DNA of 64,000 bases, taken from the sequence record OR234014.1; one strand, 5' to 3'. The DNA comes from Staphylococcus phage SAC. A program made the position numbers and the translations under genes. Of this stretch, positions 2,191-32,614 are shown in pieces; position 1 is the stretch's first letter, and each line of letters starts with the position of its first letter. The notes beneath the pieces are model-generated. The model saw only the letters and a program-made list of their open reading frames with translations, was not told the DNA's origin and did not search any database.

Positions 2191-2973
2191 TTAGTCATCA
2201 AAATAGAACTCATTAGACGAGTTGTTTTGTGTACTATTATAATCCGTTGGTATAAAAGTAGATGTGAAAGCTGTACCGTTGCCTTTGTCATATAATTCTT
2301 TTAGACGAGTAAGACCGATGTAACCAATACAGGCAGACTGAGAATAATGGTCGTCGCCTTTACGTTTAATAACTTGATAAAGTTCTCCTGTTTTTTCATC
2401 TTCTTCGTCCATGATTAGGACATTTTGCCAGTGCTTAAGATAAGTTTTTAATTCATCATCTACCTGTTGGTACATTCTTATACGTTTAGCTTTTAAATCT
2501 TGTATATATCGTTTATTATGCATTAATTTATCTACAGTTACTGTATTACTGTTTTCATTAAATTGTGCATATAATTGACCTGATGAACGTGGGCTAGACT
2601 TATAAGTACAACCAAATACTTTATCCTTACCAAAGAAATTAATTAATTTAAGTACGTTGTTACCCGAATCACCATTATCTGCAACAATAATATCAGGGTC
2701 ATATTTAGATATCTCTAATATTATAGCTTCTAAATCTGCTTCTACCATATCTGGTCTACTGTTTTTCTTAATAGAGAATAAACGTATTAAATCTACTTTA
2801 CCCTCCTCAGTCATACCATGTACAGTTACCCAGTGGAAGTTACCCCAGTCTATACCTACTGAAATAAATTTGTATTTATCTCTATTAAATAACTGTGTTT
2901 TTGCAATTTCTGACTTATTGTCAAAGATGTCTTCTGGTAAAACACGCATTTTAACATCTTCATAGGGCATCAA
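2191..2973 (-). CDS. terL: Terminase large subunit, exon 4 (C-terminal RNase-H-fold nuclease domain)
   Basis: ISVGIDWG...DIIVADNGDSG...motif pattern typical of the TerL nuclease domain; preceded by group I intron A. 5' boundary approximate (ATG at 2970 if the intron ends at the G of TTG). Confidence 0.7.
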   Translation of the reverse strand: MMPYEDVKMRVLPEDIFDNKSEIAKTQLFNRDKYKFISVGIDWGNFHWVTVHGMTEEGKVDLIRLFSIKKNSRPDMVEADLEAIILEISKYDPDIIVADNGDSGNNVLKLINFFGKDKVFGCTYKSSPRSSGQLYAQFNENSNTVTVDKLMHNKRYIQDLKAKRIRMYQQVDDELKTYLKHWQNVLIMDEEDEKTGELYQVIKRKGDDHYSQSACIGYIGLTRLKELYDKGNGTAFTSTFIPTDYNSTQNNSSNEFYFDD

Positions 2974-4272
2974 TTACTACCGTTACTTTCGTAATACTTT
3001 AACATTCATTTAAGAATCGGTTTAGACTATATCATAACCCTTATTTTTGGTTAAGGGCTCCTTGCTTTACACTAATAACTTTTTATTTAAATAATTTTCA
3101 ATGTCTTTATATTTTCTTTTACCATAATCTACTTCAAGAAGTAAATAACCGTTATCTTCTGCATAACTTCTCTTTAACTCATCTCTTAATTTTTGTTTTT
3201 TAAATGCCATCTCTCCACCAAAAGATTTTACTGGTTGATAATGTTGTATTCCTTGATACTCTATTAATGTATCATACTCAGGTAAATAAAAGTCATAAGA
3301 AAGTGACTTATTGTAAATTAAATCATCAAACTTTTTCTGTATTTCATATTTAATATTATTATTAATCAAATATTCTTCTACAATCTTTTCTCCAATAGAC
3401 ATTTTACATTTAGGACACATGTCTCTCTCCATAAGATGAGAAGCTCTTATTTCCCATGTTAAACCACATTTATGTCTAACTAAAACTTTAGATTTAGAAT
3501 TAATATACTCTGATAGAACTTCATAATCATTACCGTATTTTTTCTTAACTTCATCTAAAAATTGTTGATGGGTTCTTCTTTGTTTTAAATTATGTTCTTT
3601 CATTCTACAATGAAAACATCTGCTTTTCCTTGATATAAAATCATTAGGTTTGACTTCCCATTCTTTTCCACATACATTATGAATTAACTTTACTTTATTA
3701 GTGACTCCTGTATACTCACCAATTAAAGAATACTCATCACCGACTAAATCATGAAGTTCTTTTTTAAATTGCTTTGTAGTTTTAGATTTCCTACCTTTTC
3801 TTTTATTATTACAGGCAGGACATCTGTTACCATCTAAAAAAGATTTAGGCTTTACTAAGTATTCATTATTCCCACAAGTCTCAGAATTATGCCTCATAAG
3901 TATTTTTGTTTTATTATTTACATATTCTCCTAAAACTTCATATTCATTCGATACTCTATCGTATACTTTTTTCTTAAATTCTTCTGTAGTTATTTTAATT
4001 GCCATTTTAACACCCCCCCTTTCTTTATACATTTTTTTTATTAAAAGTTATTAGTTTTTATCTAGTTCTCACTATATCCATTTATATAGTTACCTAGGAA
4101 TTTAGTCGTTCGGCATTTACTATAATTTAATTATACCATATAATGTTATCTTGTAAATAATTAAATTATAGATTTAGCACAGGATTGCTTTATGCTTTTT
4201 ATAGCACTTAAGGTTTCCCTGTTTAACAAGGTTATTCGATATATATTACTATATAAAGGGGCTATACCATTA
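2974..4272 (-). mobile_element. Group I intron A (~1.3 kb) in terL with an intact homing-endonuclease ORF in a peripheral loop
   Basis: RC contains IA-type R element AACGACUAAAUU (about 4085-4100) and S element AUAUAGUCUAAAC (about 3020-3035). 3' region is homologous to introns B and C. Begins with in-frame UAA right after exon 3. Boundaries +/-10 nt. Confidence 0.7.
3067..4032 (-). CDS. Intron-encoded homing endonuclease: three ~50-aa zinc-ribbon (CxxC) repeats plus a C-terminal Vsr/DUF559-like PD-(D/E)xK nuclease domain
   Basis: Repeats KVYDRVSNEYEVLGEYVNNKTKILMRH / LHDLVGDEYSLIGEYTGVTNKVKLIHN / VKKKYGNDYEVLSEYINSKSKVLVRHK; C-terminus ...YDFYLPEYDTLIEYQGIQHY matches the DUF559 'DF..P....IE.DG.QH' signature. 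Confidence 0.65.
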   Translation of the reverse strand: MYKERGGVKMAIKITTEEFKKKVYDRVSNEYEVLGEYVNNKTKILMRHNSETCGNNEYLVKPKSFLDGNRCPACNNKRKGRKSKTTKQFKKELHDLVGDEYSLIGEYTGVTNKVKLIHNVCGKEWEVKPNDFISRKSRCFHCRMKEHNLKQRRTHQQFLDEVKKKYGNDYEVLSEYINSKSKVLVRHKCGLTWEIRASHLMERDMCPKCKMSIGEKIVEEYLINNNIKYEIQKKFDDLIYNKSLSYDFYLPEYDTLIEYQGIQHYQPVKSFGGEMAFKKQKLRDELKRSYAEDNGYLLLEVDYGKRKYKDIENYLNKKLLV

Positions 4273-4977
4273 ACCCAAAGAATAGTTATAAAATGCTTGC
4301 TTAGAATCTGTATTCATTTCTTTCTCTACTAATTGGCTTGCACTTATCCATACAGCATTCATCTGTGAAATGTAGTAACCCCTAATACCTGAATTATTTT
4401 TTGTTCTTTCTGGATACCTTACTTTCCAAATGCCATTATACCAACGGTCTAGGGGTTTTCCACATTTCTGACAAACGTATTGATATGTACCTTCTTGTAC
4501 TGTTTTAGCTTGTTCATCAATACCATCTGGGTTTAAAAGTAAAAGATTACCACTCTTATTTAAGTCATTAGGGTCATAATCAGCATATTTCATTTCGTTT
4601 TCATATTGACAATGTTGACACACATGAGCATAGTACCATTGGTCAGATTGTTGATATAATTTGTGTATACCTACCCCAGGTGCTGACGGAGTTGAGAATC
4701 TTCTTACTACTTTAAAAGGTGAACTTGACATAGACTCTAAAGCCGAACTTTCGGCTAGTGAGTTCACCCTCTCAAATTCGTCCATTGCGAGGAAGTCTAT
4801 GTCAACACCCTCAACTGAACCTGGTTTACTACTAGTTCTAAAAAACAAACTTGAGTTTCTAATTTGTTTATAGCCTAAGGAGTCTTTATCCCAATTCACA
4901 ATATCTCTAAAATAAGTTTTATCTAATACAGGATTAAGACGTGACTGTACAAATTTCTTTAACTGCTCTTGTGTCAT
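4270..4977 (-). CDS. terL: Terminase large subunit, exon 3 (Walker B / ATPase C-terminal part)
   Basis: VDIDFLAMDEFERV Walker-B-like motif; ends ...YSLG then an in-frame TAA that is the first triplet of intron A. An in-frame TAA sits 2 codons upstream of the ATG, so the true exon start is at or after 4977 (best model: 4974, intron ending at the G of ATG). Confidence 0.65.
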   Translation of the reverse strand: MTQEQLKKFVQSRLNPVLDKTYFRDIVNWDKDSLGYKQIRNSSLFFRTSSKPGSVEGVDIDFLAMDEFERVNSLAESSALESMSSSPFKVVRRFSTPSAPGVGIHKLYQQSDQWYYAHVCQHCQYENEMKYADYDPNDLNKSGNLLLLNPDGIDEQAKTVQEGTYQYVCQKCGKPLDRWYNGIWKVRYPERTKNNSGIRGYYISQMNAVWISASQLVEKEMNTDSKQAFYNYSLG

Positions 4978-5480
4978 TTTTTACCCTTGGTTTCCCGATA
5001 TTTATTAGGGGATTAGACTATATCATAGCTACTAATTTTGGTTAGTAGCTCCTTGCTTTACTTTTTTAACTAAATACGAAAGTATATTGTCTATTTCATC
5101 CATGTTATAATAGTAAGGTATTCGTATCAATGATATGTTGTTATCTTTGGCATATATAACAGTATACTCGTCACCTACTAGATTATACACATCTTGAACA
5201 AACTCTTTATGTGTTTTCTTTTTAGTCATTACAATATACCTTTTCTTTCTTACATGTTTAGTTAAAATTTTCTTATACTATTTTCACTATATCCGTTTAT
5301 ATAGTTATTAGTAAGTTTAGTCGTTAGGCTTTTAGCTAACTTTATAAATACAGTATAACATACACTACATATAAAGTCAACAGTTAGCACGGTTGGTTCC
5401 CACTGTCTGTGTATAGTCAGATTTAGGGTTTCTTACCAGTATATTGTTTTTTCTATACATTATTTTACTATGCCCGTTTA
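4978..5480 (-). mobile_element. Group I intron B (~500 nt) in terL carrying a degenerate homing-endonuclease remnant
   Basis: R element (RC of about 5300-5320 gcctAACGACUAAAcu) and S element (RC of about 5015-5030). 3' end ...aaauaucgggaaaccaaggg is homologous to intron C; starts UAAACGGGCAUAG like intron C's 5' end. Confidence 0.6.
5032..5229 (-). pseudogene. Homing-endonuclease remnant (65 aa) inside intron B
   Basis: THKEFVQDVYNLVGDEYTVIYAKDNN aligns to one zinc-ribbon module of the intron A endonuclease, but the nuclease domain is absent. Confidence 0.5.
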
Positions 5481-5672
5481 ACAAGGTTTTAATTCCCCCA
5501 CACTGTTTAATCGAGGGAACGTATAGAGGCACTTTACATTTCTGTAACTATACATGTCAGCAAAGTGTACCATTTCCATTACTGACATCTCACTGAGTCC
5601 TAATTGTCTACTCTTAATTACCGCTTTATTAGGGTGACTATCGTTGACAATCTTAACTTGCCCACTACTACC
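5481..5672 (-). CDS. terL: Terminase large subunit, exon 2 (deviant Walker A KSRQLGLS)
   Basis: Stop-free frame GSSGQVKIVNDSHPNKAVIKSRQLGLSEMSVMEMVHFADMYSYRNVKCLYTFPRLNSVGELKPC. KSxxxGxS is a lambda gpA-type deviant P-loop. Flanked by introns C and B; ends TGT then in-frame TAA. Confidence 0.55.
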
Positions 5673-5957
5673 CTCGGTTTCCCGATATTTATTAAGGGTT
5701 TAGACTATATTATAGCCCTTAGTTTTGGTTAAGGGTTCTCTGCTTTACTTCTCTATAAAGAGTTTTCTTATCTAGTTCTCACTATCTCCATTTAGATAAC
5801 TACCTAGAAATTTAGTCGTTAGAGTTTTTCCTCTACATGTTGTAGATTCTTTACTACGGTATCAGCTCTATCCATTAGGACTTAGCTTTTCTTACCAGGA
5901 TATTCTTTATTTTCCTATGACCGTTTAACAGAGTTTAAAGACCACAGCACTAGTTTA
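5673..5957 (-). mobile_element. Group I intron C (~285 nt, ORF-less) in terL
   Basis: RC has ctctAACGACUAAAUUUcuagg (R element, about 5800-5822) and AAUAUAGUCUAAAC (S element, about 5700-5715). Begins UAAACUAGUG directly after the exon 1 codon CCA. Confidence 0.6.
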
Positions 5958-6152
5958 TGGTCTATGAGCTTGTGCTTTACTTCTGTCCCTGTTTGGAATA
6001 CTAAAAGTTATCGGGTGACCTCGTAACGTATGATATTTTAGCATATAAGTACTAGGGTTTAACATGTTGATAATATGGTCAACTTGTTCTTGCGTAACAT
6101 TTTGTGTACCGAATGTTTCTTGTGTTATTTTTAATAATTCTTTACCATCCAT
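5958..6152 (-). CDS. terL: Terminase large subunit, exon 1 (N-terminus)
   Basis: MDGKELLKITQETFG...NRDRSKAQAHRP with SD AAGGTG 8 nt upstream; reading frame closed by the TAA that begins intron C. Confidence 0.55.
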
Positions 6153-8808: not shown

Positions 8809-8843
8809 AAGAGTATCAATTAAAAGAAAAGGACTGATGTAAC

Positions 8844-9707
8844 ATGGAAAACCAATTAATGTTTAATTTTGAAGGAGAATCAGTAAGAACAGTAGTTAAA
8901 GACAATCAAACTTACTTTGTAGGTAACGAAGTAGCTAAGATATTAGGATATTCAAATTATCGAAACGCTATAAATAACCATGCAGAGGATGAAGATAAGC
9001 TACGTACCCAAATTAGGTACGCAGGTCAATTAAGGACTGTGACATTAATCAACGAATCAGGTTTATACAGTTTAATCTTTTCATCAAAACTAGAATCAGC
9101 TAAACGATTCAAGCGTTGGGTAACTTCAGAAGTTCTACCTGATATTAGAAAGTATGGAATGTACATGAATGATGATTTTGCTAAAGCTATTATAGATAAT
9201 CCTCAAGAAGCTAAAAAAGAAATGCTTAAGTACTTTGAGGAGTCAGAAAGATTAAATAAATTGGTGACTGATTTACAAAAAGAAAATGATAGGTTATCTT
9301 CAGTAGAGAACGAAGTTATGGAATTAGAAAATAAACTAGAGTTTTTACAAAAAAGACCTGAAAATAATGATTGGAAACAAGAAGCAAATAAAAGGGTTAG
9401 AAAATTAACACCTAAAATTAGTAGTATTATCAACCCCAACTTTGGTAAAACATGGAATGAGGTTTATAAAGAAATGCTATATTCTCAAAATCTCAATATT
9501 AAATCAAAACATACTCGAAGATTAAAGAAAATGAAAAGTAATAACGTTCCTCAAAGTACAATAGATAATACAAAAATTATTGACACTATAGGAACTGATA
9601 TTGAGTACGTTGATAAATTATTCAAAGCCCTAGATAACTTAGAAGATAAATATACTACTCCAGTATCAGAAGAATACCCATCTTGTTTCTTAAAGCTTGA
9701 GTATTAA
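8844..9707 (+). CDS. BRO-N domain protein (antirepressor-like), 287 aa
   Basis: N-terminus MENQLMFNFEGESVRTVVKDNQTYFVGNEVAKILGYSNYRNAINNH matches the Bro-N consensus (F.F....VR.V..D....F...DVA..LGY). Confidence 0.7.
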   Translation: MENQLMFNFEGESVRTVVKDNQTYFVGNEVAKILGYSNYRNAINNHAEDEDKLRTQIRYAGQLRTVTLINESGLYSLIFSSKLESAKRFKRWVTSEVLPDIRKYGMYMNDDFAKAIIDNPQEAKKEMLKYFEESERLNKLVTDLQKENDRLSSVENEVMELENKLEFLQKRPENNDWKQEANKRVRKLTPKISSIINPNFGKTWNEVYKEMLYSQNLNIKSKHTRRLKKMKSNNVPQSTIDNTKIIDTIGTDIEYVDKLFKALDNLEDKYTTPVSEEYPSCFLKLEY

Positions 9708-13282: not shown

Positions 13283-13285
13283 TGT

Positions 13286-13315
13286 ACTAGGGAATTTTCC
13301 CTAGTATTTTTTTAT
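13286..13315 (+). terminator. Rho-independent terminator after the lysis cassette
   Basis: actaggga-att-ttccctagt plus T7. Confidence 0.7.
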
Positions 13316-13322
13316 TTTTAAG

Positions 13323-13352
13323 TTGACAATGTATTTATCATTATGCTACAAT
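13323..13352 (+). promoter_or_regulatory. Promoter TTGACA-18-TACAAT
   Basis: Consensus hexamers. Confidence 0.55.
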
Positions 13353-13835: not shown

Positions 13836-14466
13836 ATTTACAAAATCTATTATTAACTTTGTTGAGCGTCATGAGATTGAGGATATGATTAATATTTTTG
13901 AACTTCAAGATGTTAATAAAGCAATAGGAGACAAAGCATTTTATACTATTATAGATAATATCTTAACCTTAGATAATATAGAAGATAGAGCTATTATTTT
14001 AACTTCTTTAGATAAGTTATTAAACACTAATAGGAGTTCTTTAGTTGATTATGATTCTAAAAACCCTAATATTAGAATTTCATATAGTACTGAAGAAAAA
14101 GGTAATACAATGCAAAAAGTAGTAGAGCATTTAAGTAATAAATTAGATAATTGTTTATATCAATCTTACCCTAATATATCTAAATATAGTATTATTAGAA
14201 GTACGGCTGAGTTATTAGGAGACCTATCGTATATCGAGGATTATTATACTGGTGATGACTTAACAAACATTATTAAAGACACACATCTAGAATATATACA
14301 CAACATCATTAATAGTAGTGAATTTGATAGTATCACATTATTAGAGCAGTTTGAACTTTTAGAAGAGTCATACAGACTTGAAGAAGTAAAAGAAAAATTA
14401 GAAGAGCTAGAACACTCAGAAAAGTACACTGAAATTGATTTAATTAAGTACCTTATTAAATTATAA
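13822..14466 (+). CDS. Hypothetical protein (~214 aa)
   Basis: SD GAGG 7 nt upstream of ATG 13822; overlaps the end of the HTH gene. Confidence 0.55.
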   Translation: MLMNKFTKSIINFVERHEIEDMINIFELQDVNKAIGDKAFYTIIDNILTLDNIEDRAIILTSLDKLLNTNRSSLVDYDSKNPNIRISYSTEEKGNTMQKVVEHLSNKLDNCLYQSYPNISKYSIIRSTAELLGDLSYIEDYYTGDDLTNIIKDTHLEYIHNIINSSEFDSITLLEQFELLEESYRLEEVKEKLEELEHSEKYTEIDLIKYLIKL

Positions 14467-14479
14467 AGGGGTTTTTTAA

Positions 14480-14668
14480 ATGTTTAAGAAATTGTTCGTT
14501 ATTTTAGTTGATGGTTTTGAAGTTAATGTTATTGCAGATGACTATATCGAAGCAGAAGAACATTGTTATAAGTTTTTTGATTTCTCTACTATAAAATTAC
14601 AAGACTACAAAGAGATTTATACAAGTGAGATGTTCCCTTGCTTTGTAGAAGGGCATAAATATGCATAA
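14480..14668 (+). CDS. Hypothetical protein (62 aa)
   Basis: SD AAAGGGG; overlaps the rnh start. Confidence 0.5.
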   Translation: MFKKLFVILVDGFEVNVIADDYIEAEEHCYKFFDFSTIKLQDYKEIYTSEMFPCFVEGHKYA

Positions 14669-15086
14669 GACTGCATTAATATATACAGATGGTAGCTCAT
14701 CTTATAATAAAGGTCTTGTTGGAGCAGGGGCTATTATTTTAGATAAAAATGAGAACATTGTAAAAGAAATCAGTAAACCTATTGAAAATAGTAGTTTAAT
14801 TAAGTATAATAATGTTGCAGGTGAAATACTAGCTTGTTGTTATGGTATTGAAGAGTCTATAAAACTAGGTTATAAGCAGGCTATTATTCATGTAGATTAT
14901 ATAGGACTTATTCAATGGTATGAAGGTTCGTAGAAAACTAAAAACAATTTAAGTAAAACATATATTAATATGCTAAGGGAATACTCAAAGTTTATAGATA
15001 TAAATTTTATAAAAGTAAAGGCTCATGATAATAACAAATGGAATGAATATGTAGATGCATTAGCAAAAAAAGCAATTGGAATATAA
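14661..15086 (+). pseudogene. rnh: Ribonuclease H (RNase HI family) interrupted by an in-frame TAG at 14931-14933; the uninterrupted length would be 141 aa
   Basis: IYTDGSS, GAGAIIL, GEILA, HVDY upstream of the stop; KVKAHDNNKWNEYVDALAKKA (the RNase H C-terminal helix with the last catalytic Asp) in the same frame downstream. Confidence 0.65.
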
Positions 15087-15097
15087 GGAGAAATATT

Positions 15098-15361
15098 ATG
15101 ATGAAAAAATTATCAAAGAAGTTTCAAAAAGGTGGATTTTGGGAAAAGTTGTTTTTATTTACAGTAACAACATTACTTGTAGTGGCTACATGGTTTTTAG
15201 TAGATAGTGTGATGTTTTTCTTGCAAACAGTGCTAACATTCTGGGGATTAGTATTATTAGCACCTATTGTAGCTCTAGGTATTATTGCTTTTAGTATTTT
15301 AAAGTACCCAAGAGTAAAGGATATTAATGATTACTCGGAACCAGTTAGAAAGTACTTATAA
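15098..15361 (+). CDS. Membrane protein, 2 TM (87 aa)
   Basis: SD AAGGAG; hydrophobic helices. Confidence 0.55.
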   Translation: MMKKLSKKFQKGGFWEKLFLFTVTTLLVVATWFLVDSVMFFLQTVLTFWGLVLLAPIVALGIIAFSILKYPRVKDINDYSEPVRKYL

Positions 15362-15374
15362 GGAGACTAAAATA

Positions 15375-15977
15375 ATGACAGAATTAAAAGTTAAGGTAGG
15401 AACAAATAAAGTTAAAACAAAAGATGTTAATAAAATTAGTGAGTACTTAAAGGATACCTACGAAAAACTAGATATGGAACAATCTATAGATTTTCAAAAT
15501 AGAACACCGTATTTAATTAGTGATGACGGTACTTTTATTGCACAGTATTTAGAAAAAGCAAATGCTGTAGGTTTTTATAAGGAGTCTATTATACAAGGAA
15601 AAGTTAAACAACTTGTTCATGTAACACCTGCAGATATAGAACATACAACTTGGACTATTGAAGAAGATGATATCGTAGATGTGTATAATGATGAACTACC
15701 TGTTGGAGACATTATCATTTATTTTAGTAGAAGTATCAGTAGTGAATTGAGTGCTTATTTATTACCTCATGTATCTTTTAGAGAATATATAGATGGTTTA
15801 GGATTACAGACCCTTAGTTGTATACCTAAAATAGTTTACACAGGTATTTCAAAAGGTAGAAGAGAAAATATTAGTTTTGATGTCTTATGTACTGTGACAG
15901 GTGATTTAGAGTTTATTAATCGTGATGGTGGTTGGAATAATGACACCTTTACTACAGCGGAGAGAAAACTACAATAA
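15375..15977 (+). CDS. Hypothetical protein (~200 aa)
   Basis: SD AGGAG 9 nt upstream of ATG 15375 (the track start 15327 is less likely). Confidence 0.55.
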   Translation: MTELKVKVGTNKVKTKDVNKISEYLKDTYEKLDMEQSIDFQNRTPYLISDDGTFIAQYLEKANAVGFYKESIIQGKVKQLVHVTPADIEHTTWTIEEDDIVDVYNDELPVGDIIIYFSRSISSELSAYLLPHVSFREYIDGLGLQTLSCIPKIVYTGISKGRRENISFDVLCTVTGDLEFINRDGGWNNDTFTTAERKLQ

Positions 15978-16415: not shown

Positions 16416-16555
16416 AATAAAGGAAAGGAATATTAAGAAGGAGACTTTTTATATAGTATAGGAGAGTATTTGTTTTGTCCTGCTATAGTATATAAAAGAA
16501 AAGGAAAAATGATGTATAAGCAATAACATATAAAATCACTCAAGGAGAATGAAAT

Positions 16556-18856
16556 ATGAGACAACTAATACTAATGAGAGGTGCTCCAGGCTCAGGTAAA
16601 ACAACGTATATAAAAGAAAATGGATTAGAGGGATATTCTCTTAGCCCTGATGTCCTTAGAATACAATACAGCTCACCTGTATATGATATAGAAGGAAACC
16701 TTAGAATATCACAAGAAGAAGACAACAAGGTATGGGATTTATTATTTAGCATATTAGAAAAGCGTATGGAAAATGGAGAATTTACTGTAATAGATGCTAC
16801 ACATTCTACGGCTAAACTAATTAAAAAATATGAGAAGTTATCAAAAAAATACGGATATAGAGTATATGTGGTTAACATAGAAGCAGAGCTAGACACTCTT
16901 TTTGAACGTAATAATAATAGACAAGAACTAAAGAAAGTTCCTGTGGATGTTATTGAAAATATCTATGAGCGTTTAAAACATGAGAATATCCCAAGTTTTG
17001 CAAAAGAAGTAGATAAAAATGATTTGTTAAATACTATTAAGTGGGACAAAAATCTCATGAATACTGATTCATATGAGAAAATTCATGTAATTGGAGATGT
17101 CCATTCTTGTTTTACAGCCCTTCATTCTCTTTTCCCTACTGATTACATTATAGATAATCAAAATGAACTCTTCATATTTGTCGGAGATTATTTTGATAGA
17201 GGATTAGAATCGAAGCAAATGTTTGAGTATCTTGAGATTATTTATAAATTAAAAAACGTCATTCTATTAGAAGGAAATCATGAAAGACACCTTCGCAGAT
17301 ATACTCAGTTAGAAAAAGAAGACTATGATAATATTTGTTTAGCCTATAGTTGGGTAGATATTAGTGAAAAAGATTTTTATAAACAAGCTTTAAAAATATT
17401 TCATGCAAGAGGATTTATACCTACCTTGAAATCCTTCATAGAGAACGGAATAACTCAAAATAGAGTAAAGTCTATTCTTAGAAAGTTACAGCAGGTGGCT
17501 TACTTTAGTTTTAAAGGTCAAGACTACATTGTTAGTCATGGCGGAGTCCTTCCTGAAGTTCTTGATAATTTAAATAAGATTTCAACAAGTCAGCTTATTA
17601 ATGGAATCGGGGGATATGATTTTAATGTTGATGACCAATGGGAACATTCTAATACAATACAAATACATGGACATAGGAATTTATATAGAGAGCCTTTAGA
17701 TACTACTAAAAATTCAGTTAATTTAGAAGGTCGTGTAGAAAAAGGTGGTTGCTTAAGAGCTATAACGATAAATAAAAACAACAGTATTGAGAAGAATGAA
17801 GTAAAAAACACTATTTACGACCCTAAATTCCTTTTATCAAACAGACGGAACGATAGTATTGACAAAGACCTCACTCCTAATCAATACCTAGATATAGCCA
17901 GAAAAGAAAATAAAACCATCAAAACCAATCAACAATATAGAGATGTGTTCTCAGTTAACTTTACAAAAAGAGCTTTTTCTAAAAAGAAATGGAACCAATT
18001 AACAGTGAGTTCTAGAGGTCTTTATATTGATGAAGATAGAAACACAGTACTAGGAAGAGGATATAATAAGTTCTTTAATATCAATGAAGTAGAAGAAACC
18101 AAATTAGAGAATATGCCAGACACTATCCAATTCCCTTTAACTGGATATAAGAAAGAAAATGGATTTTTAGGACTAATGTTCTATGACCCGTTAGAAGGAA
18201 TTATATATGCAAGTAAATCTAAAACCCATTTAAGTGGACATGGAAATAAATATGCACTACTATTTAAAGAGTTAGTAGAAAAAACTTTAACCAAAAGACA
18301 AATACAAATACTAGCAACATTCCTTGAAAACCATTATATTGCTGACGATAGTTTTACCCTAGTGTTCGAGGTAGTTGATATCGAAGAAGACCCTCATATC
18401 ATAAAATATCGAAAAAGCGATATCTTCTTACTTGATATTATTTCAAATACGTTAAATATGAAAAAGAAAGATTATGATTATTTGAAATATGTTGCTGATG
18501 AAGTAGGATTACAACTAAAAGAAAAAGAGTTGGAGTTTGCTAGCTGGGAAGAATTTTATAAATGGTATAAGGATAATAATGGCTCTTATAATATATTGCA
18601 TGAAGGGTATGTATTTGAAGATTTGAAAGGATTTATGTTTAAATATAAGTCTGACTATTACAAAGACTGGAAATATATGAGAGATATAGCTTACTCCTTA
18701 TCACAAAGAAGAGATGTAAGACCTAAGCAATATATTTTAACAAGAAACCCTGAACTTAGAGATTTTTATTATTGGGCTAAAATGAAAGACTCAGAAGAAC
18801 TGAATAAAGATATCATCACACTAAAAGATGAGTTTGAAAAAGAAAAGGAGAAGTAG
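16556..18856 (+). CDS. Trifunctional polynucleotide kinase / calcineurin-like phosphatase / RNA ligase (Pnkp-like RNA repair enzyme), 766 aa
   Basis: N-terminus GAPGSGKT P-loop with the T4-Pnk-like layout (TVIDATH...GYRVYVV). Middle domain has metallophosphatase motifs GDVHS, GDYFDRG, GNHE and GH.H. C-terminal domain has nucleotidyltransferase motif I YKKENGF (K-x-N-G). Confidence 0.65.
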   Translation: MRQLILMRGAPGSGKTTYIKENGLEGYSLSPDVLRIQYSSPVYDIEGNLRISQEEDNKVWDLLFSILEKRMENGEFTVIDATHSTAKLIKKYEKLSKKYGYRVYVVNIEAELDTLFERNNNRQELKKVPVDVIENIYERLKHENIPSFAKEVDKNDLLNTIKWDKNLMNTDSYEKIHVIGDVHSCFTALHSLFPTDYIIDNQNELFIFVGDYFDRGLESKQMFEYLEIIYKLKNVILLEGNHERHLRRYTQLEKEDYDNICLAYSWVDISEKDFYKQALKIFHARGFIPTLKSFIENGITQNRVKSILRKLQQVAYFSFKGQDYIVSHGGVLPEVLDNLNKISTSQLINGIGGYDFNVDDQWEHSNTIQIHGHRNLYREPLDTTKNSVNLEGRVEKGGCLRAITINKNNSIEKNEVKNTIYDPKFLLSNRRNDSIDKDLTPNQYLDIARKENKTIKTNQQYRDVFSVNFTKRAFSKKKWNQLTVSSRGLYIDEDRNTVLGRGYNKFFNINEVEETKLENMPDTIQFPLTGYKKENGFLGLMFYDPLEGIIYASKSKTHLSGHGNKYALLFKELVEKTLTKRQIQILATFLENHYIADDSFTLVFEVVDIEEDPHIIKYRKSDIFLLDIISNTLNMKKKDYDYLKYVADEVGLQLKEKELEFASWEEFYKWYKDNNGSYNILHEGYVFEDLKGFMFKYKSDYYKDWKYMRDIAYSLSQRRDVRPKQYILTRNPELRDFYYWAKMKDSEELNKDIITLKDEFEKEKEK

Positions 18857-24041: not shown

Positions 24042-27000
24042 ATGCCTCATTTAAAAGCATATGATAAATACGGTAATATATTGGCAATAGGTTACAATGT
24101 AGAGTTACATGAAGAAGTAGGGTCTGTAATCATACCTAACTTAGCTCCTCATACCCATTACCCTCAAGGTGAGTTCTATGTATCATGGGAAGCTGAAAAA
24201 TATGAAACCGATAAAGTAGTAGTTCCTGGTTTTACAACCCTAGAATCATCATTCAAAGAAATAACATTATATTTTAAAGACCATATACTTGTAAATGCTA
24301 AATCTGCTTATGATGTAGCAGTAGATAATGGTTTTGTCGGTTCTGAAGAAGAATGGGTTAAGTCTATTAAAGGAGAAAAAGGGGAGGAAGGGGAACAAGG
24401 TAAGCAAGGTTTAAGTGCTTATGAAGTAGCTGTAAATAACGGTTTTACAGGTTCAGCTACAGATTGGCTTAAAACAGGTAAAAGTCCTTATGTATACTCT
24501 AACGAGTATATAAAGCAAAAAGATGATACTTCGGATGTTCAAAGGTTAAGACGTGCTATTAAAGATACAAGTGAAGGTAATACCCTACACATTCCTTCTA
24601 GTGAATCACCTATTAAAATAGATGATACTTTGATAATAGATAAGAATATTAATATTGTATCTGATGCTAAGATTGTTTATAATGGTAGTAAGGATAAACC
24701 AGCTATTAAACTAGATAGTTTATCATATTCTAATGTTACAATTAAAGGTATTTATGATGATAGTTCTTATCCAACTTATGGTGGAGGCTATCATGGTTTT
24801 AAGAGTCAAAACTATATAGGACTAGAATTAGTTAACTGTAGAAATGTTAATACTAATATTAATGAAATTATTGGTTTTACAGTCGGTAATAAACATAAAG
24901 CTACTGGTGGTAAAGGTCATTGGTTTAATAATACTATTATTAATTTCTTTATTAATAATGAAACACATATAGAATTAAATACAGATGGTATAGGTTCTAA
25001 TGGTGAGCAATCTTGGATGAATAGTAATTACTTCTATAAATCAGCTTTTTCATATAGTGGCACTGAGTTTAATAAACACCCTAACACATACTATAACATC
25101 AAACAAACTCTAACAAATGCTAATACCTATGGAGGAAATAGCAATGTATTCGATTCACTTAAATTTGAAACTGCTTCCCCAACATCTGAAAATTATGTTA
25201 TGGTGTATCTTAAAAAAGCAGTAGGATTTATATTTAAGAATTACAGATTTGAATTTAATAACAAAGCTACCTTTGCTATTATAGATTTAGAAACACAAGA
25301 CATGACAAAATCTTATGTAACACATAGTAAAGATATTAAGTTTATTCCTGAATTTGTTTTAGGTAATGGACATAAACTAACGTTTACAAATATTAATACT
25401 GCTAAAATACCTAGAAGTAGTATTGCTAAAATAGTAGACGAATACAAAACAACATTATTGTATAAAAATAATGATTTTAGCAAAGACTATAGAAGATTAG
25501 GGGGTAACTATCACACAGTCAAAAATGTATTTAGAAAACCATTACAGTCAACTTCTCTGACAGATAAAGTATCTTATGACTATAGTACTACACCTAGTTT
25601 AGTAGATGATAAAGGACTACTTACCTTTACAGGCTCGTACCCTATGGCTTTATATGTTAATAATGTTAGTGTTGGTGACGAGCTAATTATTAACAAGTTA
25701 TCATTTATAGGTAATTCTAGTGGTATATTTATTAAATGTTTTGATAAAGACGGTAATATATTAGACAAAGTATCTAATAATTATGATACAATATTACTAG
25801 ATGGTTATTATAATGATAAATATAAAGCGTTCACTTTCAATAACGCCCAAAAAGATACTTTTACTGTTAATAGTGAAGATGTTAAGTCTATCGTTATTTT
25901 AATATCTGGAACTATGCAAGGTTTACTTGTAGGTTCAACTAATCCATCCAATATTATTAAGTCTTCAAACGATAGTAGCAAGAATAAAACTGATGTTTTT
26001 TATTCTCATGTTAAACCTTCTAGTGTTGAAGATTTTAAATATGATGAAAAAGTATACAACAATGGTACAACACAAGTATATGGTTGGGTACTAAAAGGTA
26101 ATGATTGGAAAGAACTAGGTAAAGACACTAATTCTAAGAGTAAAGTAATAGTTAATATAGAAGATTACCCAAGAATTAATGATGAAGATAATGACTATCC
26201 TAGATTCCAAAGAGCTTTAGATTATTTAACAAGTACTAAAGGTGGTACTCTTATAGTACCTAAAGGAGCAGAGGACTATTTATTCAAAACTAAGACACCT
26301 ACTGTACAAAACCCATCACGTGTAAAAGTAACAGGAAGTAATATACACATTAAAGGTGAAGGTAATCCTACATTTATTATGTCAGGAATCACTAAAAACT
26401 ATTTAGACTCTATAGATGATATTTCTTCTAGTGGTAGAGATATGTTTACAGGATTCTCATTTATCAACTGTGATAACATTCTTGTAGAAGGATTAACATT
26501 TAAAGGGGAATGGGATAGTAAAGGTGAATTTAGATATGCGTCACCTCGTTCTATTGGAGTAGCGTTTAAAGGAAGTAGAAACTGTAAAGCATATAATGTA
26601 CATGGCTATAATATCATGGGTAATGTTGTAAATGCAGTAAACACTATGCAAGCAGTAGATGGTGTTTATGGTTACTCAGACAACATTACTATAGATAGTT
26701 GCTCAGCTACACAATGTTTAGAGAATGGTTTTAACTTTATGGGTGGTACTAAAAATGGATATTATGTTAATAATATATCTACAGGAAATGGTTCAAGTGG
26801 ATTTGAATCAGGAACAGAAAATGTTATTATAAGTAATAATATACACACAAATAATAAGTACTCAGGTTTAAGTATATCTGGCACTAATTACACAATTACT
26901 AATAACGTAATTTATGGTAATAGTAATAAAGGAGAGTTAAGTAATAAACCATCTAATGGTATTGCTATTACAGGAGGTAGTAAAGGAATTATTAGTAACA

Positions 27001-27848
27001 ATAATGTATCAGGTAATGAGGGTTACGAGTTGTACCTTTATCCAGGAGTTAATAACATAGATATACAAAATAATGTATTAAAACAAGATACAACAAGTTT
27101 AAAAACAAGTATTATTTATGCCTCAGGAACAACTAGTAAACCTGTGTCAGAAATTAACTTTAAAAATAATACATTAAGAAGTACAAATACTGCTTTGGAT
27201 AAAGCTATGTTCTTAAATTTTGTTATGGATAGTACAATTACTAATAATGATATAAAAACAGATAAAGGTAATGATTCATTAAGTGTTCAAGGTTCTTGTA
27301 GTAATCTATTCGTATTAAATAACAATATGAATAAAAACTTAAGTATTTCTAGTAATGCATTTAATGTTATAAGTAAGGATAACATAGCTTATAATTTACC
27401 TAAAGTACTGAACGGTACTGCAATACCAACTACAGGGAGTTGGAGATTGGGAGATATTGTTGTTAATACTAGTAGAACCCTAACATCAGGTAGTCCTGAG
27501 AAATGGAGATGTACTAGCGATGGAGTTGCTACTAATATGAAGTGGACATCTAATACGGATTATACACAAGGTCAAATTGTTTATAATGGGAATTATGTAT
27601 ATAAAGCAGTAGCTTCAGGTACAAGTGGTGGAACACAACCTACTCATAATAACGGTGTTATATCAGATGGCTCTATACTGTGGGAATTTATATCCACAAA
27701 AGCTAATTTTGAAGTCATAAGCCAAATAGGTGTAACTGAAAGCATTAGTAATATACCTTTATACAAAGGTCAAATTGCTATAATAGGTTCATCTGTATAT
27801 GTAGCTAAAGGTACATCAAGCAATACTGATTGGATAATTTTAAATTAG
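24042..27848 (+). CDS. Giant fibre / receptor-binding-like protein (1268 aa): N-terminal FN3-like module, collagen-like Gly-X-Y run, right-handed parallel beta-helix (pectate-lyase-like) core, C-terminal beta-rich domain
   Basis: KGEKGEEGEQGKQG collagen triplets flanked by the fibre-repeat motif SAYDVAVDNGFVGSEEEWVKS / SAYEVAVNNGFTGSATDWLKT. Periodic N-x-ITNN, ISNN and GNSN beta-helix rungs (res 830-1020); strong SD AAAGGAGA. Confidence 0.6.
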   Translation: MPHLKAYDKYGNILAIGYNVELHEEVGSVIIPNLAPHTHYPQGEFYVSWEAEKYETDKVVVPGFTTLESSFKEITLYFKDHILVNAKSAYDVAVDNGFVGSEEEWVKSIKGEKGEEGEQGKQGLSAYEVAVNNGFTGSATDWLKTGKSPYVYSNEYIKQKDDTSDVQRLRRAIKDTSEGNTLHIPSSESPIKIDDTLIIDKNINIVSDAKIVYNGSKDKPAIKLDSLSYSNVTIKGIYDDSSYPTYGGGYHGFKSQNYIGLELVNCRNVNTNINEIIGFTVGNKHKATGGKGHWFNNTIINFFINNETHIELNTDGIGSNGEQSWMNSNYFYKSAFSYSGTEFNKHPNTYYNIKQTLTNANTYGGNSNVFDSLKFETASPTSENYVMVYLKKAVGFIFKNYRFEFNNKATFAIIDLETQDMTKSYVTHSKDIKFIPEFVLGNGHKLTFTNINTAKIPRSSIAKIVDEYKTTLLYKNNDFSKDYRRLGGNYHTVKNVFRKPLQSTSLTDKVSYDYSTTPSLVDDKGLLTFTGSYPMALYVNNVSVGDELIINKLSFIGNSSGIFIKCFDKDGNILDKVSNNYDTILLDGYYNDKYKAFTFNNAQKDTFTVNSEDVKSIVILISGTMQGLLVGSTNPSNIIKSSNDSSKNKTDVFYSHVKPSSVEDFKYDEKVYNNGTTQVYGWVLKGNDWKELGKDTNSKSKVIVNIEDYPRINDEDNDYPRFQRALDYLTSTKGGTLIVPKGAEDYLFKTKTPTVQNPSRVKVTGSNIHIKGEGNPTFIMSGITKNYLDSIDDISSSGRDMFTGFSFINCDNILVEGLTFKGEWDSKGEFRYASPRSIGVAFKGSRNCKAYNVHGYNIMGNVVNAVNTMQAVDGVYGYSDNITIDSCSATQCLENGFNFMGGTKNGYYVNNISTGNGSSGFESGTENVIISNNIHTNNKYSGLSISGTNYTITNNVIYGNSNKGELSNKPSNGIAITGGSKGIISNNNVSGNEGYELYLYPGVNNIDIQNNVLKQDTTSLKTSIIYASGTTSKPVSEINFKNNTLRSTNTALDKAMFLNFVMDSTITNNDIKTDKGNDSLSVQGSCSNLFVLNNNMNKNLSISSNAFNVISKDNIAYNLPKVLNGTAIPTTGSWRLGDIVVNTSRTLTSGSPEKWRCTSDGVATNMKWTSNTDYTQGQIVYNGNYVYKAVASGTSGGTQPTHNNGVISDGSILWEFISTKANFEVISQIGVTESISNIPLYKGQIAIIGSSVYVAKGTSSNTDWIILN

Positions 27849-31687: not shown

Positions 31688-31878
31688 TGCAAACCTATAA
31701 AGTAAGTCTTTGTATCAAGTTCTTAGCATCTAAATGTGATTACAAAATAAAAAAGCATTATTTTGTGCAAAGTATAAATGAGGAAGAAGCTAAGAATATG
31801 GCATTAAAACTGACTCGTAAAAAGCTCTCATTCAAAACTGCAAGTATAAGGGTCGAAAAAGTGGAGGCAGTAGAATAA
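31684..31878 (+). CDS. Small basic protein (~64 aa)
   Basis: ATG 31684 with SD GGGGAG. Confidence 0.45.
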   Translation: MMQTYKVSLCIKFLASKCDYKIKKHYFVQSINEEEAKNMALKLTRKKLSFKTASIRVEKVEAVE

Positions 31879-32264
31879 TGTCTAAATTTAAAGCATGGAA
31901 AAAAGATGAGGAAATAATGTTATGAGATGGTAATTTTATTTTTTCTAAGGATATAAAGTTACTACAATACACAGGACTTAAAGACAAAAACGGTACTAAA
32001 ATATATGAGGGTGATATTATTGAGTTCGAAGATGAAGTGTTAGCAATACCAGGTGATTTTGAATCTGCAGTAGAAACAATTAACAGAGCAGTGATATCTA
32101 TTGATGTTGTAAGTGGCATTCACTTAAAAGACTTTATGTTTGAGAGCGCAATCTCTGAAAATGATTACTTTGAGTATACAGACAAAAAATCTTTCCTTAT
32201 GTACGACTGTGAGGTTAAAGGCAACGTATTTGAATCATCTCATTTATTGGAGGTAATAGAATGA
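31878..32264 (+). pseudogene. YopX-family protein interrupted by an in-frame TGA at 31923-31925
   Basis: MSKFKAWKKDEEIML*DGNFIFSKDIKLLQYTGLKDKNGTKIYEGDII... aligns over its whole length to the intact paralogue (MIPKFRAWDKESQRMFNIARF...QSTGLEDKNGTEIFEGDIL); TAATG coupling at the start. Confidence 0.55.
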
Positions 32265-32614
32265 TACCGAAATTTAGAGCATGGGATAAAGAATCACAAA
32301 GAATGTTTAATATTGCTAGATTTGACTTTGCAGACCATACAGTATATTCACACCTATTTGCTTGTGATGGTTACTTAGGAGAAAACCTTGTAATTATGCA
32401 ATCTACAGGACTTGAAGATAAGAATGGTACTGAAATATTTGAAGGTGATATACTTAGATATTGGGGGGATTGTAGACCTGTAATATTTAAAGAAGCTTCT
32501 TTTGGATGGGTTGAAGGGGGAGATTACATACCATTCTCTATGATGTGCATTTCAGAGATTGGTAATACTGAAGTTGTAGGAAATATCTATGAAAAAAGGA
32601 GTAAAAAAGAATGA
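32261..32614 (+). CDS. YopX-family protein (117 aa)
   Basis: KFRAW.K....M...TGL.DKNG..I.EGDI YopX signature. Confidence 0.6.
   Translation: MIPKFRAWDKESQRMFNIARFDFADHTVYSHLFACDGYLGENLVIMQSTGLEDKNGTEIFEGDILRYWGDCRPVIFKEASFGWVEGGDYIPFSMMCISEIGNTEVVGNIYEKRSKKE

Follow-up and report, generated by a model that had tools for sequence, protein, structure and literature searches.

A private amber codon in the RNase H gene of a Silviavirus phage

We have found that the ribonuclease H gene (rnh) of Staphylococcus phage SAC (sequence record OR234014.1) is interrupted by an in-frame amber codon at a site where all of its close relatives encode tryptophan. The analysis covers a stretch of 64,000 nucleotides of this record, which we call the window. 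In the window, rnh differs from the gene of the relatives, a conserved residue is lost, and TAG is a normal terminator. Quite probably this is a real and private nonsense mutation which knocks out rnh and which is tolerated because the gene is dispensable for plaque growth.

The rnh reading frame

The rnh frame, of the RNase HI type, lies on the plus strand at 14661..15086. It starts with an ATG at 14661, in overlap with the stop of the preceding ORF (14480-14668), and ends with a TAA at 15084-15086. It comprises 141 codons plus the TAA and is broken at codon 91 by the amber codon TAG (14931..14933, plus strand). According to the ORF list, the part that is actually translated is an N-terminal ORF of 90 aa (14661..14933, plus strand), which ends at the amber codon. 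The rest is an untranslated C-terminal remnant of 50 codons plus TAA (14934..15086, plus strand), which is recognised from its translation and from its match to the Pfam profile PF00075. A preliminary description of this DNA had proposed that a TAG splits an RNase H frame here and that the reconstructed protein has 141 aa. The translation and the ORF list bear this out, the length being the sum of 90, 1 and 50 residues.

The motifs named in that description are all present as well, with TDGSS, GEILA and HVDY on the 5' side of the stop and KVKAHDNNKWNEYVDALAKKA on the 3' side. Three of the four catalytic carboxylates sit in the 90-aa part, namely D10 (TDGS), E55 (GEILA) and D79 (HVDY). The remnant encodes KVKAH(122)...N128...D132ALAKKA, that is, the His and the fourth catalytic Asp. 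The downstream part had further been described as having neither an ATG nor a ribosome-binding site of its own, and only the latter half of this statement holds. An in-frame ATG at 14970 does open a 38-aa ORF inside the remnant (14970..15086, plus strand, from the ORF list), and there is no Shine-Dalgarno-like sequence ahead of this ATG (AAAACATATATTAAT). This small ORF is probably not expressed. In the annotation of phage V1SA20, where rnh is broken by a 1-bp deletion, the same ORF appears as a separate 'RNaseH' CDS.

Upstream of the gene, a consensus scan has revealed a terminator-like hairpin (13284-13307, plus strand) and a strong promoter-like site (13323-13352, plus strand; TTGACA-18-TACAAT with TG). 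The annotation of phage Romulus has a terminator and a promoter at the position equivalent to 13284..13352, and the hairpin and promoter-like site are likely to be the start of the early operon that holds rnh.

The amber allele and its relatives

Compared with the intact ribonuclease H gene of phage StAP1, the rnh of the window is identical at 425 of 426 positions. The sole difference is a G to A change at 14932, which turns TGG, the codon of Trp91, into TAG. We have searched 50,697 phage records with a 55-mer centred on 14932, whose design is such that any 28-base megablast seed has to span this base. The TAG version gives 0 matches, versus 44 for the TGG version. Since 44 is also the exact count of records at least 95% identical to rnh, all the 44 close relatives have Trp at this codon, i.e., every relative carries G at 14932 where the window carries A, and TGG is the ancestral codon.

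Intact rnh is 98–100% conserved elsewhere among the close relatives. The genes of StAP1 (APC42874.1) and Romulus (Romulus_170, AFV81213.1) are the same gene at the same position of the early left-arm operon, and their nucleotide identity to the window is 98–99.8% over all 426 bases. Their codon 91 is TGG and their product has 141 aa, as against TAG and 90 aa in the window.

The TAG allele itself is new to the databases that we have searched. It has no match in IMG/VR, where the TGG control has none either, and the JGI metagenomes and GTDB genomes contain no match to the pattern of either allele. These scans carry little weight, because the controls are empty and the Silviavirus group is absent from these collections. 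In addition, the exact 90-aa product has no entry in the gene-position index.

Family membership and the part that is lost

With Trp restored, the protein matches the Pfam family RNase_H (PF00075) with E = 1.5e-13 and 51.6 bits, over profile positions 3-140 of 141; the cut-off of the family is 25.8 bits. Scored singly, the two halves of rnh reach 24.8 and 24.9 bits, both just under the cut-off. The lower score is that of the 90-aa fragment, which does not hold an uninterrupted complete domain, and the C-terminal remnant covers profile positions 97-140. As for the active site, we have looked for the equivalents of E. coli D10, E48, D70 and D134. The reconstructed frame encodes all four catalytic carboxylates, as D10, E55, D79 and D132, the last of which lies 3' of the stop.

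A protein search returned 35 homologues, most of which are 138–220 aa long. The shortest has 116 aa and is located on a 912-base contig, so that it is probably a fragment, and none of the 35 is an orthologue of naturally about 90 aa. Twenty-two of them, with lengths of 138–220 aa and identities down to 34%, were aligned. In this alignment Trp91, E55, D79, H122, N128 and D132 are invariant, and D10 is nearly so. Among the options raised in the preliminary description, an amber mutation is thus the one supported by the comparison with orthologous rnh, since TGG is found in 44 of the 44 close relatives, an invariant Trp is replaced, and the orthologues are not naturally short.

The reconstructed protein also aligns end to end with the solved structures 2kq2 (E = 1.4e-20) and 3h08 (E = 1.5e-07), and Trp91 falls within the conserved G-x-W-K motif of this alignment. 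The phage segment KVKAH...N..VD.LA, which contains the last catalytic Asp as well as the conserved His, matches the C-terminal segment KVKGH..N..ADELA of 3h08, and it matches 2kq2 as well. That is, the G-x-W-K motif and the C-terminal H...N..D.LA are common to the reconstructed phage protein, the RNase H-related 2kq2 and 2kw4, and the RNase HI 3h08. The phage protein as encoded differs from all of these in that it ends before the C-terminal third, and its role as an RNase H is a predicted one. Judging from these alignments, the 90-aa product should be missing the C-terminal helices as well as one strand of the central sheet, and of the four catalytic carboxylates it would keep three. Because this strand and these helices, together with His122 and the fourth catalytic Asp132, would be removed, the 90-aa fragment is predicted to be inactive.

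Phage context and the quality of the sequence

By megablast, the window groups with Silviavirus (Herelleviridae, Twortvirinae), i.e., with the group of Romulus, Remus, Stau2 and StAP1. In a comparison of phage records that leaves out the newer Silviavirus records Pelagios (PX842708) and SAP02, the nearest one over window positions 6000-30000 (24 kb) is V1SA20 with 99.4% identity, and none is identical. The relation to StAP1 is that of a mosaic, in which long blocks of 97–99.7% identity are separated by short segments that are divergent (83–92%) or missing. As there is no identical record and the relation to StAP1 is mosaic, the window represents a separate isolate.

The TAG allele is unique among 45 genomes, its truncated 90-aa product is matched in no other assembly, and the change strikes an invariant residue, as a random error could also do. 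These observations would agree with the explanation that the phage really has TGG, and that the A at 14932 is an error of the consensus, caused for instance by shallow coverage, by a systematic error of long reads or by a minority variant that was taken for the consensus. However, a phage consensus sequence of normal depth rarely contains isolated substitution errors. In the comparison with StAP1, Romulus, LJLAME001 and V1SA20, 26 substitutions and no indels are private to the window. Checked against ORFs of at least 60 aa, the private substitutions besides 14932 are synonymous, missense or outside these ORFs. Since such changes resemble natural variation in a clean assembly, an isolated substitution error at 14932 becomes less likely. 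Furthermore, inherited nonsense mutations are real in this genus, as a TGA codon in a YopX gene (described below) is identical in two independent records. Overall, we regard a consensus error as unlikely, and the reading as a real private mutation is kept in what follows.

The decoding of TAG

On the other hand, the sequence could be correct and the codon could still be decoded as an amino acid. A suppressor tRNA, encoded by phage or host, or programmed readthrough would then keep up the synthesis of full-length RNase H. The preliminary description had listed this among its options. The frame 3' of the TAG is perfectly intact, which would fit with readthrough but is equally expected of a very recent mutation, and UAG is always misread at a low level by near-cognate tRNAs.

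The evidence against this explanation is of several kinds. First, the stop is conserved in none of the 44 relatives. Second, TAG is in ordinary use as a terminator. Of 61 ORFs that have 100 codons or more and do not overlap, 44 stop with TAA, 10 (16%) with TAG and 7 with TGA, and the TAG-terminated ORFs include those of a 766-aa and a 1268-aa protein. Efficient suppression would extend many of the proteins of the phage. When the ORFs of four relatives are placed on the window by tblastn, the stop in rnh is the only in-frame TAG.

Third, ARAGORN finds no tRNA in the 64-kb window nor in the complete 135.5-kb genome of StAP1, and in Romulus it finds a single one, tRNA-Ser(GCU). Silviavirus VL10 has also been reported to be without tRNA (PMC11035597). 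By analogy with StAP1 and VL10, a phage-encoded suppressor outside the visible 64 kb would be unlikely. Fourth, the RNA of 100 nt around and after the stop has a folding energy of -12.2 kcal/mol with z = -1.76, which is no better than shuffled controls, and no Rfam family has a match anywhere in the window. We therefore consider decoding of the TAG as extremely improbable.

Reassignment of TAG is rejected on the stop-codon usage and the single in-frame TAG of the window. Programmed readthrough finds no support in the non-conservation of the stop among the 44 relatives, the insignificant fold and the missing Rfam element.

Compared with recoded phages, the window shows only one likeness, which is an in-frame TAG within a conserved gene. 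In recoded phages, many genes contain in-frame stops, the codon is avoided as a terminator, and a suppressor tRNA is usually encoded, whereas the window has one in-frame TAG, ends 16% of its long ORFs with this codon and has no tRNA. Actually, TAG in the window follows the standard bacterial code, with no sign of recoding.

The tRNA gene of Romulus has a position of its own: within 4653-5941 of the Romulus genome, tRNA-Ser(GCU) adjoins a transposase gene, with the early genes on one side and the holin on the other.

Other broken genes in the genus

The rnh gene of V1SA20 is inactivated independently within the same genus. It carries a 1-bp deletion at gene position 138 (alignment column) and is annotated as two CDS (UVT34783.1 and UVT34784.1). 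This lesion is a frameshift which keeps TGG at codon 91, whereas the lesion in the window is a nonsense substitution.

A second in-frame stop in the window had also been pointed out in the preliminary description, and it does exist: the YopX paralogue I (31878-32264, plus strand) has a TGA at 31923-31925. StAP1 holds the identical TGA, with 100% identity over 390 bases. The codon is GGA in MR003 and GAA in EW41, KSAP7, phiRNIID and Romulus, and the gene is intact with 128–129 aa in the latter four phages. Judging from these alleles, the opal is an older GGA to TGA nonsense mutation inherited in one lineage. The inference that the amber in rnh is therefore not isolated does not follow: because the YopX stop is a different codon, arose by a different substitution and is inherited with StAP1, it gives no evidence of a shared decoding mechanism. 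What it does show is that accessory genes of the region undergo decay. Directly after YopX I there is an intact YopX II at 32261-32614 (Pfam YopX, 6.6e-21).

Further broken genes are found among the relatives. The Bro-N antirepressor-like gene (8838-9704, plus strand) is intact in the window with an open frame of 289 codons. In V1SA20 and Romulus the homologue is interrupted by an in-frame stop, and the Romulus annotation gives it as two CDS. In V1SA20 (13999-14601), a Gln codon of the ORF070 homologue (15327-15977), two genes downstream of rnh, is changed to a stop. Of the genes broken in V1SA20, the window has the rnh frame without the deletion and ORF070 without the stop.

In the sister genus Kayvirus, loss-of-function mutants of phage K gp102, nonsense mutants included, are readily isolated in the laboratory (PMC9861931). 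Like classical amber mutants, they arise by one base change which creates a premature stop in a phage that stays viable, as is the case here. The example concerns a gene different from rnh, and it illustrates that Twortvirinae stocks readily fix such mutations. Unlike for laboratory amber mutants, nothing in the data of the window points to selection or to a suppressor host. The rnh amber fits the pattern of a sporadic loss of dispensable early accessory genes.

Such cases also bear on the explanation that the loss of RNase H was positively selected, for instance while the phage adapted to a production host or because it let the phage evade a host defence that detects the enzyme or relies on it. 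The same 426-bp gene being inactivated independently in V1SA20 would favour it, and so would the strong selection of the gp102 nonsense mutants on certain hosts (PMC9861931). If it were true, the rnh product would be counter-productive on some Staphylococcus hosts, e.g., by triggering or feeding a defence or by slowing growth on production strains, and rnh would determine host range or fitness in the Silviavirus phages used for therapy. However, two lesions in about 45 genomes are no more than what is observed for other accessory genes of the region, and elsewhere rnh is intact and 98–100% conserved. The literature that we have searched gave no link of rnh to host range or defence, with nothing specific found on Silviavirus rnh in connection with nonsense mutations, phage training or defence escape. 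A selected loss seems very improbable to us.

Proposed explanation and its meaning

The explanation that we prefer, a tolerated nonsense mutation, would start from a G:C to A:T transition at 14932 that changed the invariant Trp91 codon TGG into amber TAG. Under the standard code, translation would halt at codon 91 and leave a 90-residue fragment without the last beta-strand, the C-terminal helices, the fourth catalytic Asp (Asp132) and His122. In this way the phage RNase H would be knocked out, and rnh would be a fresh pseudogene. The loss would be tolerated if this early accessory gene is dispensable on Staphylococcus, where host enzymes may cover the removal of RNA-DNA hybrids. The mutation should be recent, having occurred either in nature or during plaque purification or laboratory passage, and its fixation may have come about through a bottleneck or under weak selection.

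The dispensability of rnh in Silviavirus is suggested by two broken alleles among about 45 genomes, as the amber allele and the frameshift of V1SA20 together give a hint that the gene may not be needed for growth in culture. At the same time, since the 44 intact and highly conserved copies show normal purifying selection, the loss of rnh may carry a cost.

A premature amber in a well-conserved, known phage gene is a known kind of event, and nothing in it is mechanistically new. Its biological weight is small, for it concerns a single private point mutation, in an accessory gene, of one isolate from a genus that has been well sampled. For annotation, 14661-15086 should be treated as a disrupted rnh pseudogene, and neither as two genes nor as a recoding event. 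As this genus is used for therapy, users of the phage may want to know that the stock would be without RNase H.

Mosaic segments and two long proteins

Window positions 2351-5959 match StAP1 only in short pieces, with 83–98% identity. Its equivalent in the relatives is the large terminase gene, whose annotation is divided into several parts that surround a homing endonuclease gene. Rfam families, and hence intron models, have no match in 2351-5959 or elsewhere in the window.

The segment 23986-27750 is found in neither StAP1 nor Romulus and is thus a mosaic insertion in the early region. The 1268-aa ORF at 24042-27848 (plus strand) has a right-handed beta-helix region (PF13229) and is named 'autotransporter adhesin' in V1SA20.

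The 766-aa protein is encoded at 16556-18856 (plus strand) and has a T4-type RNA ligase 1 domain (PF09511, 6.4e-34) in addition to a P-loop kinase (AAA_33) and a calcineurin-like metallophosphatase. The V1SA20 annotation calls it merely a 'putative serine/threonine protein phosphatase'. Window positions 16507-17900 are absent from StAP1, and in LJLAME001 the locus is occupied by a PhoH-like gene and a separate RNA ligase. The architecture of the 766-aa protein is like that of kinase-phosphatase-ligase RNA-repair enzymes.
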